Shown here: positions 28,081 through 35,680 of the stretch, piece after piece
Numbering within the stretch: position 1 is the first letter of the stretch
How the letters are laid out: each line of letters opens with the position of its first letter
Origin: a virus
Direction: 5' to 3' (one strand)
Length of the DNA: 51,741 bases
Virus record (IMG/VR): IMGVR_UViG_3300033075_001605
The notes under the pieces: model-generated
Seen by the model: the letters and a program-made list of their open reading frames with translations, nothing else
What the model was told of the DNA's origin: nothing
Databases searched by the model: none
Position numbers and translations under genes: made by a program

Positions 28081-28365
28081 GTGAATGTAAAGATGGCCAC
28101 GCGCAACCCTACCAATGCAAAGATCGATGACGGTCTGTGCACTGACTACGTGTTGCATAAGTCGCAGCAGACGATCTTTAATGGGATCCAGGGAAAGATC
28201 ATTGACTACACTGAGCATCGTCTGCTGCGTTACCTAAGCACCGTCAAGGACCCTCAGCAGCGTCTTGTCTTGACAGCGATTCTTCATGACTACTGCTTAG
28301 GGCACATAGCAATTGCATGGAAGCGCGGCTCTCCGACTTACCTTCGCGTGACAAAACAAAGGTAG
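28081..28365 (+). CDS. hypothetical protein (upstream of groEL; not GroES-like)
   Basis: 94-aa ORF with a GTG start and AAAGGAG upstream. Confidence 0.5.
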   Translation: MNVKMATRNPTNAKIDDGLCTDYVLHKSQQTIFNGIQGKIIDYTEHRLLRYLSTVKDPQQRLVLTAILHDYCLGHIAIAWKRGSPTYLRVTKQR

Positions 28366-28398
28366 CACAGCTCATGCGTTTGAGTTAGTATCAAGCTC

Positions 28399-30036
28399 AT
28401 GAGTTTTAACGAACCAAGCCTTACCACGAAGGTTTTGTTTTCTAGCGCGGCGCGCGACAAGTTGTTTGACGGCATGTCAATCGCTGCAAACGCTGTCGGA
28501 TGCACCTTGGGCCCAAAAGGCAAGACTGTTTTAATCCAACGTGACGGTTTGTCTCCCTTGGTCACCAAGGACGGTGTGACTGTCAGCAAGTCGATTAGGC
28601 TCAAGGACCCGGTGAAGAGGATGGGTGCTGAGCTTATCCGTGAAGCAGCTGCCCAGACAAATGAAGTTGCAGGAGACGGTACCACGACTGCGACCGTCCT
28701 CACGATTGCGATGGTGAGGGAGGGGCTAAAGCTGCTCGACGCCGGCTTTCCTGCAAAAGAGCTATGCGCTGGGATTGAAAGCGCAAGAACTCGTGTTGAC
28801 GCAGAGCTATGCTCAGCCGCAAAGCAGCTAACGACGTTGTCTGAGATCGAACAGGTTGGCACGATCAGCGCAAACGGTGATGCAGTCATCGGCGGCCTTA
28901 TCGCACAGGCAATGGACAGGGTGGGCCGCGACGGCGTCATCACAGTAGAAGATGCAAAAGGAATGGCTACTACGCTAGACATTGTCGAAGGCATGCAGTT
29001 CGACCGTGGCTACCTTAGCCCATACTTTGTGAACAACCCAGAGCGAATGGTTGCAGCGTATGCAGACGCATTTGTCTTGGTGACAGACAAGAAGCTTTCA
29101 AACCTTCGCGACCTCGTCCCGTTGCTGGAACACGTCATCAAGCTCCAGAAAGGATTGTTGATCATCGCAGAAGACGTTGAAGGCGAGGCATTGCAAGGCC
29201 TAGTCCTCAACAGGGTCAAGTCGCAGCTGCCTGTGGCTGCCATCAAGGCACCTGGCTACGGCAACCACCGTGACGAGCTGCTGCAGGACATCTGTGCCTT
29301 AACGGGAGCCAAGCTTGTGTCTAGCTCAACAGGCGTCGCAGTAGCAGAAGCTGCAAAGTCGTTGGGACAGGTGAAAAGGTTTGTTGTCGACGCTAAATCG
29401 ACGACGCTGGTTGGTTCTGGAAAGACAAAGGAAGACGTTGAAAAATACGTCTCTGAGCTGCGCATTCGTCTGGATGACGTTACGCTCGGTGCAGAAGAGA
29501 TCGCTAAGCTAAAGGTACGCATCGCCAAGCTAGCCAGCGGTGTTGCAGTCATCAAGGTCGGTGGAGCCACTGAGGTTGAGATGATTGAACGAAAGTACCG
29601 CATCGAGGACGCGCTAAACGCGACCAAGGCTGCTGCCCAAGAAGGAATCGTCCCTGGCGGAGGGATGGCGCTTGTCAATGCATACAAAAAGCTAGACGGA
29701 GCCAAGGTGGGCCCAGAACCAAAGCAGATGGGCGAAAGCATAGTGTTTAAGGCTTGTCTGGAGCCTCTTCGTCGGATCGTGGAGAACGCAGGACGGGCGC
29801 CTGATGTTGTGGTAAACGATGTCATGCGCATGCAGCAAGATGGCTCATCAGCAAACGGATATAACGGGTCAACCGGCTGCTACGAAGACCTCATCGTCGC
29901 AGGAATCGTTGACCCTGTGAAGGTCACCAGGACTGCACTAAAGAACGCAGCGTCAGTCGCAGTTACGTTTTTGTCGCTAGATGCTGTCATCTACGATGAG
30001 TGTGAAAGAAAGGCAGGCGTCGATGCAAACAAGTGA
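28399..30036 (+). CDS. groL: chaperonin GroEL (Hsp60, group I)
   Basis: AAVEEGIVPGGG, AGDGTTTATVL and the apical and equatorial order are collinear with GroEL over 545 aa. Confidence 0.9.
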   Translation: MSFNEPSLTTKVLFSSAARDKLFDGMSIAANAVGCTLGPKGKTVLIQRDGLSPLVTKDGVTVSKSIRLKDPVKRMGAELIREAAAQTNEVAGDGTTTATVLTIAMVREGLKLLDAGFPAKELCAGIESARTRVDAELCSAAKQLTTLSEIEQVGTISANGDAVIGGLIAQAMDRVGRDGVITVEDAKGMATTLDIVEGMQFDRGYLSPYFVNNPERMVAAYADAFVLVTDKKLSNLRDLVPLLEHVIKLQKGLLIIAEDVEGEALQGLVLNRVKSQLPVAAIKAPGYGNHRDELLQDICALTGAKLVSSSTGVAVAEAAKSLGQVKRFVVDAKSTTLVGSGKTKEDVEKYVSELRIRLDDVTLGAEEIAKLKVRIAKLASGVAVIKVGGATEVEMIERKYRIEDALNATKAAAQEGIVPGGGMALVNAYKKLDGAKVGPEPKQMGESIVFKACLEPLRRIVENAGRAPDVVVNDVMRMQQDGSSANGYNGSTGCYEDLIVAGIVDPVKVTRTALKNAASVAVTFLSLDAVIYDECERKAGVDANK

Positions 30037-30439
30037 AAGCGTCAAGAACCCTATGATGCACGAGCAGCTGATGTGGGAAAACCTCCTTAACCATGAAGAG
30101 GCTTTGTCATACGAAGGTGTGTTGGCTCGCTTCAACGAAAGGATCGTTGACCTTCAAATCGTTAAGGAAAAGCTGAGAGGACAGGTCGTTACCATGGCAG
30201 TTGTGGGAGCCTGTGCGCTTATCGGGTTGCTTCACAGCTATTTTGCAGCAGCCGTTGTGACAACGTCTCTCGCTGTCTCAAGCGTTCTTATGCTATACTT
30301 AGAGATGTTTTTGACCAAGAAAAGGATGATGGCTGCGTTTGATGAGCTAAACGAACTGACGGTTGAGCTGTCGTGCAAGGTCGTTGAACGCTCGACTGGG
30401 CATAAGATTGACTATGTCCCGATGCCTAAAGACAGGTGA
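30023..30439 (+). CDS. small membrane protein (2 TM)
   Basis: VVTMAVVGACALIGLLHSYFAAAVVTTSLAVSSVLMLYL. The ATG overlaps the GroEL 3' end. Confidence 0.45.
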   Translation: MQTSESVKNPMMHEQLMWENLLNHEEALSYEGVLARFNERIVDLQIVKEKLRGQVVTMAVVGACALIGLLHSYFAAAVVTTSLAVSSVLMLYLEMFLTKKRMMAAFDELNELTVELSCKVVERSTGHKIDYVPMPKDR

Positions 30440-34066: not shown

Positions 34067-34919
34067 GCAGCTCAACTCCACCTCGCGACGCAAGCATTTT
34101 TAACGCTACGTTTCTGTTGTAGGCATCCTTTAGCGGCAACGTCGAGACCAACAATAGGTCTTGATCGCTCAGGAACGTGAGAAGCTCCTTCATCCTGCTC
34201 ATGACTGAATGATGGGTGTAAGGACCCCAAGGAAGCTCAACGGGAGCCTTCTTGAGCTTCTCGATGACCTTAAACGCATTTTCACACAGCTCTTGCGACG
34301 TTTTTGGCGTCAGGCCCCTCAGGTGATGGCGCATCTGCCACTTTACGATACGTGCGATCGTGAAGTCAGATTCCCAGTTTGCAACGTGAAGCAGCTTTGC
34401 GTCATCCAGCTCGTCCCACCCGTTGGGGACGATCTTTTCTTTGTCGTTGAACGCAACCATTCCGTTGTAGATGTCAAATGACGACAGCACATCAATGATG
34501 TCACCAGTGTACCTTTTGACAACCTGCAGCTGGCTCACGCTGTTCTGAAAGTTGATGCAGGCTCCCGTGGGCGACACGTTGGCGTTGAATGCACGACGCA
34601 GGTTTCTGTCTCGTTTGAGAGCACCCAGAAACGAATTGATCGCTTCATCGTTTGGGAAAAACAGGTCAATGTCTCCCGACAGGCCTCGGTGTTCGATGAT
34701 AGCATCCCGAAGGTCGTCAACAGATTTATTGTCTGCTGAGATCACGATCCTCGCAAAGCCGCCAGCAACATACGCTCCGTGGGAAAACGCAAGGCTGACA
34801 AGGTCAGGCGTTGTGTCAAACAATCGCCTTTCCTCGTTTTTATCTGACCGGTAGCTTGCCTTTAACATTTCAAAGGCGTCGCTAGGTGTCCTGCTGAACT
34901 CAAGCTGCTCCATGGGCAA
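34056..34919 (-). CDS. Pol-beta-superfamily nucleotidyltransferase
   Basis: HGAYVAGGFARIVISADNKSVDDLRDAIIEHRGLSGDIDLFF has the hG[GS] motif followed by [DE]h[DE]h. Confidence 0.5.
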   Translation of the reverse strand: MPMEQLEFSRTPSDAFEMLKASYRSDKNEERRLFDTTPDLVSLAFSHGAYVAGGFARIVISADNKSVDDLRDAIIEHRGLSGDIDLFFPNDEAINSFLGALKRDRNLRRAFNANVSPTGACINFQNSVSQLQVVKRYTGDIIDVLSSFDIYNGMVAFNDKEKIVPNGWDELDDAKLLHVANWESDFTIARIVKWQMRHHLRGLTPKTSQELCENAFKVIEKLKKAPVELPWGPYTHHSVMSRMKELLTFLSDQDLLLVSTLPLKDAYNRNVALKMLASRGGVELLNA

Positions 34920-34945
34920 AACCTACCACAGAAAGCCGCATGTTT

Positions 34946-35680
34946 TCACAGAAGCCTGGTCAACACATCACACCCATCAACAGTCACCAGGACGGTGTGC
35001 TCAAACTGTGCGCTTAGGCCGCCGTCGCAGGTTCGCACCGTCCAACCGTCATCTTCAAATGCAATCCTTGGGTCTTCTACGCATAGCATCGGCTCGATGG
35101 TAAAAACGTCGCCTTCGTTTATGACTGTTTGGTCGCCAGAGTCATAATGGTCAACGTGCGGAAACGTGTGAAAACGTGTGCCGATGCCATGGCCGCCAAA
35201 CTCCTTGACAACGCTAAACCCTGCGGCATGTGCGATGCGTTGGATCGTTTTTCCTATGACCCCCAGTCTTGCGCCGGGCTTGACCTGCTTGATTGCTTCA
35301 TCAAGCGCGAATTGCGCCGTAAGGATCAGTCTGTCAGCAACCGAAGAAACAGCACCGACTCGAAACGTTGCATTTGTGTCTCCAAAGTGGCCGTCGATGA
35401 TGGTTGTCACGTCTACGTTTACGATGTCACCTTCGTTCAAAACGTATGGGCCAGGGATGCCATGACAAACCACATCATTCACAGACACACAAACGCTCTT
35501 TGGAAATCCCTTGTAGCCTAGCGGCGCTGGGTAGCCGCAACGACGAATCGTGTCGTTATGGACTACGAGATTTAGTTCATCAGTTGTGATGCCTGGGCGA
35601 ACTGCCTGACCAACGACGCGAAGCGTTTCGGCCGCAGCTTTGCACGCTGCGCGCATCTTGGCAATGTCCAGTTTTTTCAT
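34946..35680 (-). CDS. map: methionine aminopeptidase, type I
   Basis: The pita-bread motifs VCHGIP, DIVNVDV, HGIG and FTIEP are present over 244 aa. Confidence 0.9.
   Translation of the reverse strand: MKKLDIAKMRAACKAAAETLRVVGQAVRPGITTDELNLVVHNDTIRRCGYPAPLGYKGFPKSVCVSVNDVVCHGIPGPYVLNEGDIVNVDVTTIIDGHFGDTNATFRVGAVSSVADRLILTAQFALDEAIKQVKPGARLGVIGKTIQRIAHAAGFSVVKEFGGHGIGTRFHTFPHVDHYDSGDQTVINEGDVFTIEPMLCVEDPRIAFEDDGWTVRTCDGGLSAQFEHTVLVTVDGCDVLTRLL

Follow-up and report, generated by a model that had tools for sequence, protein, structure and literature searches.

GroEL, IF-1 and methionine aminopeptidase in a conserved block of a probable huge-phage genome fragment, with a small non-GroES ORF in the groES position

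Why would DNA classified as viral encode a GroEL without GroES, translation initiation factor IF-1 and methionine aminopeptidase (MetAP), and does such DNA come from a phage, a bacterium or a giant virus? The window (the whole 51,741-nt stretch that was analyzed) is, judging from its sequence and that of its relatives, most likely part of the genome of a huge (jumbo) bacteriophage that has not been cultured, which carries these genes in a conserved block and whose gene functions are assigned by homology. The identities proposed for the three genes in a preliminary description hold, each scoring above its NCBIfam equivalog cut-off. For MetAP the type and position given there stand, while the strand, which had been omitted, is minus.

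28399-30036, plus strand: group-I chaperonin GroEL of a phage-specific clade, 545 aa
31702-31962, plus strand: bacterial-type translation initiation factor IF-1, 86 aa, with a Lys-rich N-terminal extension
34946-35680, minus strand: type-I MetAP, short form, 244 aa

GroEL matches Pfam Cpn60_TCP1 (E=1.5e-67), phrog_5725 'chaperonin groEL' (E=7.5e-144) and NCBIfam TIGR02348 (604.9 bits, cut-off 582.1), and in the GroEL alignment T30-P33, D52, D87-T91, D398 and D495 are invariant across 24 clade members. The residue that makes an inter-ring contact in the E. coli protein, E461, is substituted here and the chain lacks a GGM tail, so its oligomeric state or cycle may depart from the E. coli model. 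IF-1 matches PF01176 (E=1.5e-20) and TIGR00008 infA (76.4 bits, cut-off 61.15); its best PDB match is 6c00 (E=2.2e-21), and its core aligns full-length with solved bacterial IF-1s. MetAP matches Pfam Peptidase_M24 (E=5.4e-46) and TIGR00500 type I (276.6 bits, cut-off 171.35) and its metal ligands are invariant; in the clade alignment the equivalents of E. coli H79, D97, D108, H171, H178, E204 and E235 do not vary.

None of the three resembles a recent copy of a host gene. Relatives of the window GroEL are encoded on 249 IMG/VR stretches. It belongs to a large metagenomic clade, found on IMG/VR viral contigs and assemblies, whose members share 54-75% identity with it (62-75% for the best 120 homologues, on contigs that reach 345 kb). 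Among the matches listed from a scan of 185,579 species-representative genomes, cellular GroELs are at most 50% identical, the nearest belonging to Myxococcaceae, Desulfobacterota and Bdellovibrionota MAGs; E. coli GroEL is about 46% identical. IF-1 shares about 50% identity or less with bacterial IF-1s, and MetAP at most 58% with named bacterial proteins. Phylogenies, which the preliminary description had called for, place GroEL and MetAP in clades of their own (all trees are neighbor-joining, without support values), with the short MetAPs (240-255 aa) sister to 265-266-aa MetAPs named as Polyangiaceae or Deltaproteobacteria. The combination named there as the mark of a bacterial replicon, near-identity to one bacterial genome together with other housekeeping genes, is absent.

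The genes also keep company, as had been claimed. In 29 of 32 related loci IF-1 is found downstream of GroEL, at a distance of 0.2-8 kb, a co-location that is therefore not due to chance. Four IMG/VR contigs carry both MetAP and a clade GroEL, 13-19 kb apart in three of them, and for nine further GroEL/MetAP matches the longest contigs are of identical size; in a pattern-limited scan MetAP was seen in a subset of the large clade contigs. GroEL, IF-1 and MetAP are intact and travel together, and they are members of long-standing, phage-specific clades, not recent host transfers.

Bacterial equivalog thresholds are exceeded by all three genes, which would also be expected if the contig were a piece of a bacterial chromosome, a megaplasmid or a reduced symbiont genome and the genes ordinary housekeeping ones. 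The nearest cellular relatives of GroEL (among the matches listed) and of MetAP, both 'deltaproteobacterial', would fit this origin, as would the lack of virion genes: capsid, terminase, portal and tail genes were found neither in the 51.7-kb window nor in about 20 kb of additional flank from its relatives, so that it is context and the IMG/VR classification that support the viral assignment. We nevertheless regard a bacterial origin as very improbable. Neither tRNA nor rRNA genes nor any other Rfam family occur in the 51.7 kb, and the scanned window ORFs show no ribosomal protein or EF-Tu family, which answers the earlier call to look for further translation genes; infA and map lie outside any ribosomal-protein operon; and GroEL identity above 50% occurs in none of 80 genome loci among the matches listed from the species-representative scan. 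The relatives are viral according to IMG/VR and carry homing endonucleases. The window itself is dense with small orphan ORFs, holds Thg1 and RNA ligase PHROG matches and a full-length match to phrog_10079, with relatives in Rak2-like and other jumbo phages, and encodes a major-vault-protein (MVP)-like protein and a 657-aa protein with homologues in the curated huge phages LR756500, LR756501 and LR756508.

Even less probable, in our judgment, is a giant virus of eukaryotes (Nucleocytoviricota-like). Such an origin would account for the eukaryote-like genes, which comprise the MVP homologue, Thg1 and an isocitrate lyase also encoded in the window, with TANGO2 in relatives, and contigs of 300-370 kb would suit it. 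However, IF-1 is of the bacterial infA type (E=1.2e-21) and not eIF-1A (E=1e-5), GroEL and MetAP are likewise bacterial-type, the PHROG matches are to tailed-phage families, and curated huge phages also carry the MVP-like gene. The short genes are closely packed, with stop and start codons that overlap, and Shine-Dalgarno (SD)-like motifs precede 36% of ORFs against a background of 15%. The large-genome phage of the preliminary description stands, since same-order relatives occupy IMG/VR contigs and assemblies of 205-370 kb and genes are held in common with curated huge phages. Relatives have genomes and assemblies of about 200-370 kb, and their metagenomes are from soil, groundwater and freshwater-type habitats.

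Given a probable phage GroEL, the next question is what, if anything, serves as its lid. Cpn10 matches at E<=0.01 were absent from the 48 small window ORFs and the roughly 40 larger ORFs scanned, and at E<=1 an iterated GroES profile found no GroES in the window or in the GroEL-clade loci. The reported lack of an adjacent GroES is thus borne out. What does not hold is that GroEL stands alone, since one small ORF is a conserved neighbor throughout most of its clade:

28081-28365, plus strand: orf94, small protein in the groES position, 94 aa, GTG start, 33 nt before GroEL

In agreement with the earlier description, orf94 is not GroES-like, either by sequence (it has no family match in Pfam, PHROG or NCBIfam) or by predicted fold, which consists of two helices and a hairpin, unlike the Cpn10 beta-barrel. 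Of 37 clade loci, 35 have a homologue directly upstream of GroEL and in the same orientation, with a median gap of 37 nt (at most 52 nt in 30 of the 35). Five loci have gaps of 200-780 nt, with a GIY-YIG endonuclease gene called within the largest, so tight translational coupling is not required. The linkage reaches the limit of detectability: distant orf94 members (profile E 1e-8 to 1e-10) still precede GroELs that are 48-53% identical to that of the window. In the neighbor-joining tree all orf94-linked GroELs form a single clade, separate from GroES-linked GroELs, although one sub-lineage inside the GroEL clade (L030/L031) lacks orf94.

These observations allow two readings. A possible one, to which we give less than an even chance, is that the phage GroEL uses host GroES and that orf94 is a small gene with no part in folding, perhaps encoding a DNA- or RNA-binding protein that regulates the chaperonin gene. 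The hydrophobic apical residues Y199, Y203, F204, L237, L259 and V263, which in E. coli contact the mobile loop of GroES, are conserved in 24 clade GroELs, the predicted helix-helix-hairpin layout of orf94 could fit a small nucleic-acid-binding domain, and borrowing of the host co-chaperonin has been proposed for GroES-less viral GroELs by Marine et al. (PMC5649160). Substrates bind to these apical residues too, and their conservation is hence no proof of GroES use. The other reading, somewhat more doubtful, is that orf94 is the functional partner of GroEL, a cofactor of another kind than GroES (lid, substrate adaptor or assembly/regulatory subunit) that took the place of groES in an ancestral groES-groEL slot. 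The persistent adjacency described above speaks for it, as do the shuffling of other GroEL neighbors between loci, a length of about 94 aa and a position that mimic groES, and the finding that the iterated profile matches canonical GroES only beside bacterial-like GroELs outside the orf94-linked clade. In the predicted model the N-terminal 20 residues have low confidence and are probably flexible; the N-terminus contains nearly invariant motifs (MATR; T21, F23, H26-Q30, with an F-V-L hydrophobic triplet), which may loosely recall a mobile loop. On the other hand, a partner role must contend with the non-Cpn10 fold, the longer gaps and the orf94-less sub-lineage; heptamer formation and GroEL binding are hypothetical, and shared regulation can equally yield conserved adjacency.

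T4 gp31 and RB49 CocO retain the GroES fold and serve host GroEL, and to our knowledge the phages that carry them encode no GroEL. Like them, orf94 is a small phage protein proposed to work with a GroEL, whereas its predicted fold is different and it accompanies a phage GroEL. The sequence similarity of gp31 and CocO to GroES is very low, as PMC5649160 also mentions. The arrangement in the window also parallels the bacterial groES-groEL operon, in which an ORF of about 95 aa and a gap of 30-50 nt precede a same-strand GroEL that passes TIGR02348, but departs from it in the small ORF, the missing GGM tail and the E461 contact.

GroES-less phage GroEL is already published, for virioplankton clades proposed to act alone or with host GroES (Marine et al. 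2017, PMC5649160) and for gp146 of Pseudomonas phage EL, a stand-alone chaperonin (PMC7185714). The window GroEL is likewise a phage group-I chaperonin that lacks a neighboring cpn10 gene; it differs from these in its soil, groundwater and freshwater-type origin on 200-370 kb contigs, in its identity to E. coli GroEL with the apical GroES/substrate-binding residues kept, and in the fixed small ORF, of which the available portions of the literature on GroES-less viral GroELs hold no mention that we found. The earlier statement that GroEL occurs in a few jumbo phages was an understatement, as 274 phage-collection records match, some of them bacterial contamination. That collection (50,697 records) contains no clade member, its best GroEL being 48% identical, and no orf94 match. 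What is new here is the constant pairing of orf94 with GroEL, together with the MetAP clade of phages.

GroEL, IF-1 and MetAP form part of what appears, from homology, to be a conserved non-structural arm for protein production and quality control (23-36 kb), comprising a trypsin-like protease, a classical AAA+ ATPase, orf94-GroEL, orf118-IF-1, a PPP phosphatase and MetAP. Its remaining features are:

23311-24102, minus strand: trypsin-like (HtrA/DegP-type) serine peptidase (Pfam Trypsin_2, E=3.6e-16)
26638-28029, plus strand: classical-clade AAA+ ATPase, candidate unfoldase (Pfam AAA, E=6.6e-15)
31308-31664, plus strand: orf118, conserved ORF without assigned function, directly upstream of IF-1
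32440-33204, minus strand: PPP-family metallophosphatase, lambda NinI/ApaH-like (Metallophos, E=3.7e-13)
33743-34066, plus strand: orf107, conserved proline-rich ORF without assigned function; at least 23 related loci encode homologues (E down to 3e-38)
34056-34919, minus strand: orf287, ORF without assigned function, immediately downstream of MetAP (26-nt gap)

Two long contigs, one of 227 kb from groundwater and one of 345 kb from forest soil, preserve the order AAA, orf94, GroEL, IF-1, phosphatase, and on the former MetAP follows the phosphatase. Variable small ORFs, and in relatives also homing endonucleases, lie between these genes, which occupy both strands and so do not form a single operon; promoter or terminator signals above chance were not found in the window. 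The peptidase is the upstream context of the block, with homologues in 11 related loci (L002 and L004 have it). The ATPase combines an FtsH/PAN/Cdc48-like module (partial NCBIfam matches) with an N-terminal domain of about 200 aa and precedes the orf94-GroEL pair in 19 of 32 clade loci, while the phosphatase is downstream of IF-1 in 11 of 32. Its description as lambda-PPase-like is sound, given a match to phrog_246 (NinI-like Ser/Thr phosphatase, E=8.3e-32); its best NCBIfam match, ApaH-like, is below cut-off. Homologues of orf118 directly precede IF-1 in at least 19 related loci, a placement with which the L001 and L002 gene calls agree.

That IF-1 occurs in very large phages, as the preliminary description stated, is also in print: Al-Shayeb et al. 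2020 (PMC7162821) and a study of soil huge phages (PMC11748809) report IF1, IF3, rpS1, rpS21, aaRS and PDF, proposed to redirect host translation initiation. The cargo of GroEL, IF-1 and MetAP is largely of a kind known for very large phages. The window shares with published huge phages a bacterial-type IF-1 in genomes above 200 kb, but differs from them in that IF-1 belongs to a conserved block with GroEL and in having no tRNA or ribosomal protein genes; the IF-1 proteins of Lak phages, LR756511 and Sinorhizobium phage Phosso share only 42-48% identity with it. In the alignment the clade IF-1s have a basic N-terminal extension (12-22 aa) that the E. coli, B. subtilis and T. thermophilus proteins lack. 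It parallels an extension described for phage rpS21 (PMC7162821); for IF-1 itself we found no mention in the available portions of that paper or of PMC11748809.

A type-I MetAP encoded near IF-1 recalls the bacterial map-infA pair of the ribosomal-protein (spc/alpha) cluster, an arrangement also seen, in bacterial-type form, in the phage-collection record MT835508.1, with 74 nt between the end of map and infA. By comparison, the window genes are separated by 3 kb, lie on opposite strands and have no ribosomal protein genes around them, and each belongs to a phage-specific clade. Other phage type-I MetAPs, in huge phage LR756511 (49% identity, with an IF-1 as well) and Vibrio phage V6Aob (38%), are distant from the separate short-form clade, and our search on jumbo/huge phages and methionine aminopeptidase brought up no account of a MetAP encoded by a phage in the portions of the literature available. 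Its neighbor orf287 has no match in Pfam, PHROG, NCBIfam or PDB sequences; a homologue adjoins MetAP in L018.

The preliminary description saw in these genes a remodeling of host translation and folding, with MetAP processing phage proteins, and we infer similar roles from homology. GroEL would fold abundant or large phage proteins during infection. Given its intact ATP site and a likewise intact hydrophobic apical groove, which binds substrates and GroES mobile loops, it most likely runs a normal ATP-driven cycle, with host GroES as lid or, as in phage EL, none, and orf94 is probably a clade-specific accessory factor. IF-1, with its basic extension, may join host 30S subunits and tilt or sustain initiation on phage mRNAs, only about a third of which would carry an SD-like motif. 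MetAP would trim the initiator methionine after host deformylase, so that N-terminal maturation could match the burst of phage protein synthesis.

The small-family members said to be interspersed through this region did not withstand analysis, as phmmer and jackhmmer show no paralogy among the small ORFs of 28-36 kb. Paralogue groups occur only beyond the block, at 36.6-38.0, 41.9-47.3 and 42.3-43.7 kb.

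The preliminary description had named GroEL, IF-1 and methionine aminopeptidase (MetAP) genes within 7 kb of one another, and all three are real open reading frames that score above the cut-offs of their NCBIfam equivalog models. They lie in a block (28081-35680) that contains the following genes.

28081-28365, + strand: orf94, a 94-residue protein without a family match in Pfam, PHROG (phage protein families) or NCBIfam
28399-30036, + strand: GroEL (Pfam Cpn60_TCP1, E=1.5e-67; phage GroEL PHROG, E=7.5e-144; TIGR02348)
31308-31664, + strand: orf118, part of the conserved core of the block, immediately preceding IF-1 in at least 19 loci
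31702-31962, + strand: IF-1 (TIGR00008 infA, 76.4 bits against a cut-off of 61.15)
32440-33204, - strand: PPP-family phosphatase (Metallophos PF00149, E=3.7e-13; NinI-like phrog_246, E=8.3e-32)
33743-34066, + strand: orf107, a proline-rich member of the conserved core, present in at least 23 loci (E down to 3e-38)
34056-34919, - strand: orf287, without a PDB sequence match
34946-35680, - strand: MetAP (TIGR00500 type I, 276.6 bits against a cut-off of 171.35)

The phosphatase, previously called lambda-PPase-like, is indeed a PPP-family enzyme whose best phage family is NinI-like; it reaches 90.7 bits against the NCBIfam ApaH model, under the cut-off of 176. The claim that members of small protein families are interspersed among the three genes was not borne out, as all-against-all phmmer and jackhmmer comparisons found no paralogy in the 28-36 kb region. 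The sole small families detectable in the window are three groups of tandem paralogous ORFs beyond 28081-35680, all on the - strand: four of 120-140 aa (41946-47252), three of 70-90 aa (42329-43711) and two of about 85-110 aa (36641-38047). Candidate operon, promoter and terminator structures for the block were rejected, their counts being no higher than in shuffled controls.

The window GroEL scores 604.9 bits against the TIGR02348 equivalog model (cut-off 582.1) over residues 11-535, and GroELs in the PDB align to it with E-values down to 8e-152. We aligned this protein and 23 relatives, drawn from a metagenomic clade of GroELs 54-75% identical to it, with E. coli GroEL; residue numbers follow an E. 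coli sequence that agrees with the PDB alignment. The nucleotide-site residues T30-P33, D52, D87-T91 (GDGTTT), D398 and D495 are identical in the window protein and invariant in the 24 clade members aligned. The apical hydrophobic residues of GroEL bind both substrate and the mobile loop of GroES, and the groove positions Y199, Y203, F204, L234, L237, L259, V263 and V264 read Y, Y, F, V, L, L, V and L in the window protein, with only conservative replacements among the clade GroELs. Of the inter-ring contacts, R452 and V464 are retained, E461 is replaced by A (S, T, P or N in the clade relatives) and S463 by D; the protein also ends without the C-terminal GGM repeat of E. coli GroEL. With its nucleotide site and apical hydrophobic residues kept, the window GroEL is judged intact. 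A 152-aa ORF (29981-30439, + strand) with a long hydrophobic, probably transmembrane, segment overlaps the 3' end of the GroEL gene by 56 nt; in the relatives, its position is taken by a different small ORF without sequence homology to it.

The absence of a GroES next to this GroEL, remarked on in the preliminary description, was confirmed and is shared by the clade. No Cpn10 domain was detected at E<=0.01 among the roughly 88 window ORFs, and an iterated GroES profile had no match, beside GroEL or elsewhere, within 10 kb on either side in 37 clade loci. GroELs outside the clade have a canonical GroES in the upstream slot, or nothing there. In the clade, a homologue of orf94 lies directly upstream of GroEL on the same strand in all loci except one sub-lineage (loci L030/L031). 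The gap between the two genes has a median of 37 nt, and 30 of 35 loci have a gap of no more than 52 nt; the widest of the five larger gaps contains a called GIY-YIG endonuclease gene. This adjacency is far steadier than that of any other neighbour of the clade GroELs. The orf94 family comprises 236 representative clusters at 50% identity, all of them stand-alone proteins of 60-130 aa, and two of its most distant members (profile E 1e-8 to 1e-10) precede GroELs that are 53% and 48% identical to that of the window. A tblastn search of a phage collection (50,697 records) gave no match to orf94.

The earlier judgement that the 94-residue protein does not resemble GroES also stands. The orf94 profile returned only chance immunoglobulin matches when compared with PDB sequences, the iterated GroES profile did not recover orf94, and the GroES beta-barrel is absent from its predicted fold; on these profile searches and the predicted fold, a divergent GroES or gp31 was rejected. 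In the predicted structure, the N-terminal 20 or so residues have low pLDDT (about 48-60, as means of 10-residue blocks) and are followed by a conserved T21-D-F-V-L-H-K-S-Q-Q stretch, the near-invariant motifs of the protein being M-A-T-R and T21, F23 and H26-Q30. The modelled N-terminus loosely recalls a GroES-type mobile loop with its hydrophobic tripeptide, a likeness that is only suggestive.

Fixed adjacency of this kind is what comparative genomics commonly takes as a sign that two proteins work together, and would suggest a functional partnership of orf94 and GroEL; adjacency leaves the kind of partnership unspecified. We tentatively raise the possibility that the orf94 family is an unrecognised, non-Cpn10 partner of phage chaperonins, a small alpha/beta protein that would have occupied the groES slot since the base of a widespread huge-phage lineage and that may physically engage the phage GroEL as a lid substitute, a substrate adaptor or an assembly factor. 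If this is true, orf94 would represent a third solution for capping a group-I chaperonin, besides GroES/gp31 and the lid-less EL type. To our knowledge, how the folding chamber is closed in GroES-less phage chaperonins is known for one or two examples only, and GroES-independent phage chaperonins are a small but active structural topic. With 94 residues, a position adjoining its GroEL and hundreds of natural variants, orf94 is a concrete and cheaply testable candidate partner; if it is a mere neighbour, the finding is a well-documented addition to a known class.

Viral GroELs with and without GroES are already in the literature, as is the proposal that the GroES-less ones act alone or borrow the host GroES (PMC5649160; PMC7185714). 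For the window GroEL, capping of the chaperonin cycle by host GroES is favoured by the intact apical groove and is a serious candidate, if short of probable. A cycle in which orf94 plays a role, to which the conserved gene pair points, is conceivable and somewhat doubtful, and a cycle that runs without any lid, as in phage EL, is rather unlikely. These options are not all mutually exclusive.

The window IF-1 is of the bacterial type. It reaches only 25-28 bits against the NCBIfam a/eIF-1A models, well below its infA score, and aligns over 67-71 residues, the entire OB domain, to solved bacterial IF-1s. Its N-terminus is extended by about 14 Lys-rich residues, unlike the minimal S1-like OB domain of about 70 aa without extensions. 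Across the IF-1 clade this extension is Lys/Arg-rich and 12-22 aa long, and it is missing in the IF-1s of E. coli, B. subtilis and T. thermophilus. Identity is 49-69% inside the clade and 42-50% to IF-1s of the phage collection, several of which are bacterial contaminants. MetAP is likewise clearly assigned, with only 93 bits against the type II model. The metal ligands D97, D108, H171, E204 and E235 (E. coli numbering) correspond to window D90, D101, H164, E196 and E227, and the catalytic H79 and H178 to H73 and H171; all seven residues are invariant in 23 clade members and align to solved MetAPs. MetAPs of 240-255 aa, including that of the window, form one neighbour-joining clade, whose sister consists of MetAPs of 265-266 aa that are 55-58% identical, some of them assigned by name to Polyangiaceae or Deltaproteobacteria. 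At least two records that are genuinely of phages, LR756511 and Vibrio phage V6Aob, encode a MetAP. In a literature search on methionine aminopeptidase in jumbo and huge phages, none of the papers examined described MetAP as a phage gene.

A phylogenetic check proposed earlier, asking whether these genes belong to a phage clade or reflect transfer from a host, came out on the phage side: GroEL and MetAP each group in a clade of their own in neighbour-joining trees. Among the matches listed from a scan of 185,579 species, each represented by a single genome, no cellular GroEL exceeded 50% identity, the closest of those listed being from MAGs of Myxococcaceae, Desulfobacterota and Bdellovibrionota. 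With tblastn, the best GroEL match in the phage collection was 48% identical, and the top matches were bacterial contaminants. On the other hand, the best 120 GroEL matches in a large protein collection are 62-75% identical and unnamed, and lie on contigs of up to 227, 271, 325, 341, 343 and 345 kb. In IMG/VR, 249 stretches encode a GroEL relative; about 35 of 80 among them have a GroEL 54-70% identical to that of the window, on viral contigs of up to 369 kb. Judged from the sequences, none of GroEL, IF-1 and MetAP is a recent host copy, because their identity to cellular sequences is low and they form clades of their own. Recent copying from a host was set aside on two counts, as a megablast search with 20 kb of the window gave no match in the phage collection and GroEL is at most 48-50% identical to cellular sequences among the matches listed. 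The 'deltaproteobacterial' nearest neighbours of two of the three genes are a weak hint at a donor or host.

Gene order in the block is partly conserved among relatives. A 227-kb groundwater contig has the order trypsin-like protease, AAA ATPase, 94-aa ORF, GroEL, IF-1, Metallophos and MetAP, and a 345-kb forest-soil contig has an identical order up to Metallophos, with no MetAP inside the 10 kb read. Both blocks are interspersed with variable small ORFs and with NUMOD3, GIY-YIG and Endonuclease-VII homing endonucleases. Of 32 clade loci taken with 10 kb of flank on either side (about 26 of them non-redundant), 29 have IF-1 downstream of GroEL, at a distance of 0.2-8 kb; 19 have an AAA ATPase upstream of it, and 11 have the phosphatase downstream. 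Only two loci have MetAP within 10 kb of the clade GroEL; the two genes share an IMG/VR contig in four cases, in three of which they are 13-19 kb apart, and for nine more GroEL and MetAP matches the longest contigs are of identical size. Just upstream of the AAA ATPase, two related loci (L002, 5523-7291; L004, 4949-7142) encode an ADP-ribosylglycohydrolase and a TANGO2-family protein, and L002 additionally a Band_7 protein and a VWA protein; none of these four genes was detected in the window.

The proposal of a large-genome phage is supported by these relatives. The window is an entire JGI metagenome contig of 51,741 bp, and relatives with the same block are on contigs of 205-370 kb, among them IMG/VR viral contigs of a recurrent size of 300-370 kb. 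The GroEL of the 227-kb relative (labelled 01um) recurs in a companion assembly of Hainich groundwater, on a contig with the label 02um. A full-length phrog_10079 match in the window has relatives in Rak2-like jumbo phages, Xanthomonas XbC2, Caulobacter CcrPW and Myxococcus Mx1, and homologues of an 894-aa protein resembling the major vault protein (MVP) and of a 657-aa protein occur in the curated huge phages LR756500, LR756501 and LR756508. The window's Thg1-like and RNA-ligase PHROG matches and the excess of SD-like motifs ahead of its ORFs (36% against a background of 15%) likewise favour a phage. Virion genes were not seen: no HK97 capsid, portal, terminase or tail gene was detected among the roughly 88 window ORFs, the sole hint being a non-significant Gp23 match (E=0.0076), and the flanks read in the relatives contain no virion or packaging gene. 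The upstream flank of one of them (L090) encodes a CCA-adding enzyme, dCMP deaminase, SOD and CN-hydrolase, none structural, and the flank past the MVP-like gene in the 369-kb contig has only small ORFs and no virion hallmark. Two ORFs of the window's downstream third have no IMG/VR relatives. The element is very probably a huge phage. That the contig is a cellular fragment, as a stretch lacking virion genes might be, is highly improbable next to the viral contigs that share its block; a eukaryotic giant virus, which the vault-like gene could bring to mind, is equally improbable next to the huge-phage homologues of that gene.

Additional translation genes, which might have been expected in the rest of the contig, did not turn up: the window has no tRNA, tmRNA or other Rfam family, and PDF was not detected in it. 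SD-like tetramers are present 5-18 nt upstream of 31 of 85 window ORFs (36%; background 15%), the starts of GroEL, IF-1 and MetAP each being without one. The only other k-mers enriched upstream of starts are TAG-containing pentamers, possibly the stop codons of preceding genes.

The most plausible role of the block is to add capacity for making phage proteins. During initiation, IF-1 sits in the A site of the 30S subunit, and a phage copy with a basic tail could make initiation complexes more stable on phage leaders, the majority of which have no strong SD. MetAP would take off the initiator Met once the host has deformylated it, and GroEL would fold large or abundant phage proteins; the adjoining classical AAA+ ATPase and trypsin-like protease suggest an unfolding and degradation arm. 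The basic extension of IF-1 parallels the extended rpS21 that PMC7162821 describes in huge phages, a group for which that paper and PMC11748809 already report IF1 and IF3. Across deep divergence, a lineage of huge phages from soil and groundwater keeps genes for several successive steps of making a protein linked: initiation by an IF-1 with a basic extension, N-terminal maturation by MetAP, folding by GroEL and, possibly, unfolding and degradation by the AAA+ ATPase and the protease. The published 'intercepting translation' view of huge phages is thereby extended towards a co-inherited proteostasis module, and MetAP becomes a further entry among the translation-associated enzymes known from phages. 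Apparently undescribed so far are the constant pairing of orf94 with GroEL, the IF-1 clade with its extension and the clade of short-form MetAPs.

Several other genes of the window merit mention. The MVP-like protein (38389-41073, - strand, 894 aa) is a homologue of the eukaryotic major vault protein (MVP shoulder, E=1.2e-29, with Vault_3 and a hint of Band_7) without a PHROG match. Ten IMG/VR contigs, several of them with a clade GroEL as well, encode homologues at 66-72% identity, and those in the huge phages LR756500 and LR756501 are 39-43% identical. An isocitrate lyase (7563-8828, + strand; Pfam ICL, E=6.6e-101), also without a PHROG match, is a possible glyoxylate-shunt auxiliary gene; a search for phage literature joining major vault protein, GroEL and isocitrate lyase found unrelated bacterial papers only. 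A Thg1-like tRNA-His guanylyltransferase (10019-10861, + strand; phrog_4717, E=8e-77) and an RNA ligase (14834-15847, + strand; phrog_548, E=2e-40), together with a CCA-adding/poly(A) polymerase in L090 (292-1167) just upstream of the equivalent of the window's start, constitute a tRNA repair and maturation set in a window without tRNA genes. A 201-aa ORF (24341-24946, + strand) has sub-threshold class-II aaRS matches (tRNA-synt_2, E=6.6e-5; tRNA-synt_2d, E=1.4e-3); it matches nothing in NCBIfam or among PDB sequences, and the related loci lack a homologue of it. G+C content is 63% at 48001-50000 and about 52% in the remaining contig; ORFs at 48743-50561 have no family match, and an ORF at 50888-51493 likewise has none and is also without relatives in IMG/VR. 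The window also encodes a NUDIX hydrolase (19687-20214), a protein with a weak pyrimidine-dimer glycosylase match (20970-21461), a UDP-glucose pyrophosphorylase (21458-22537; UDPGP, E=3.3e-27) and a 5'-3' exonuclease (16852-17712), and three small ORFs match HhH-GPD, FkbM methyltransferase and DUF4314, respectively.
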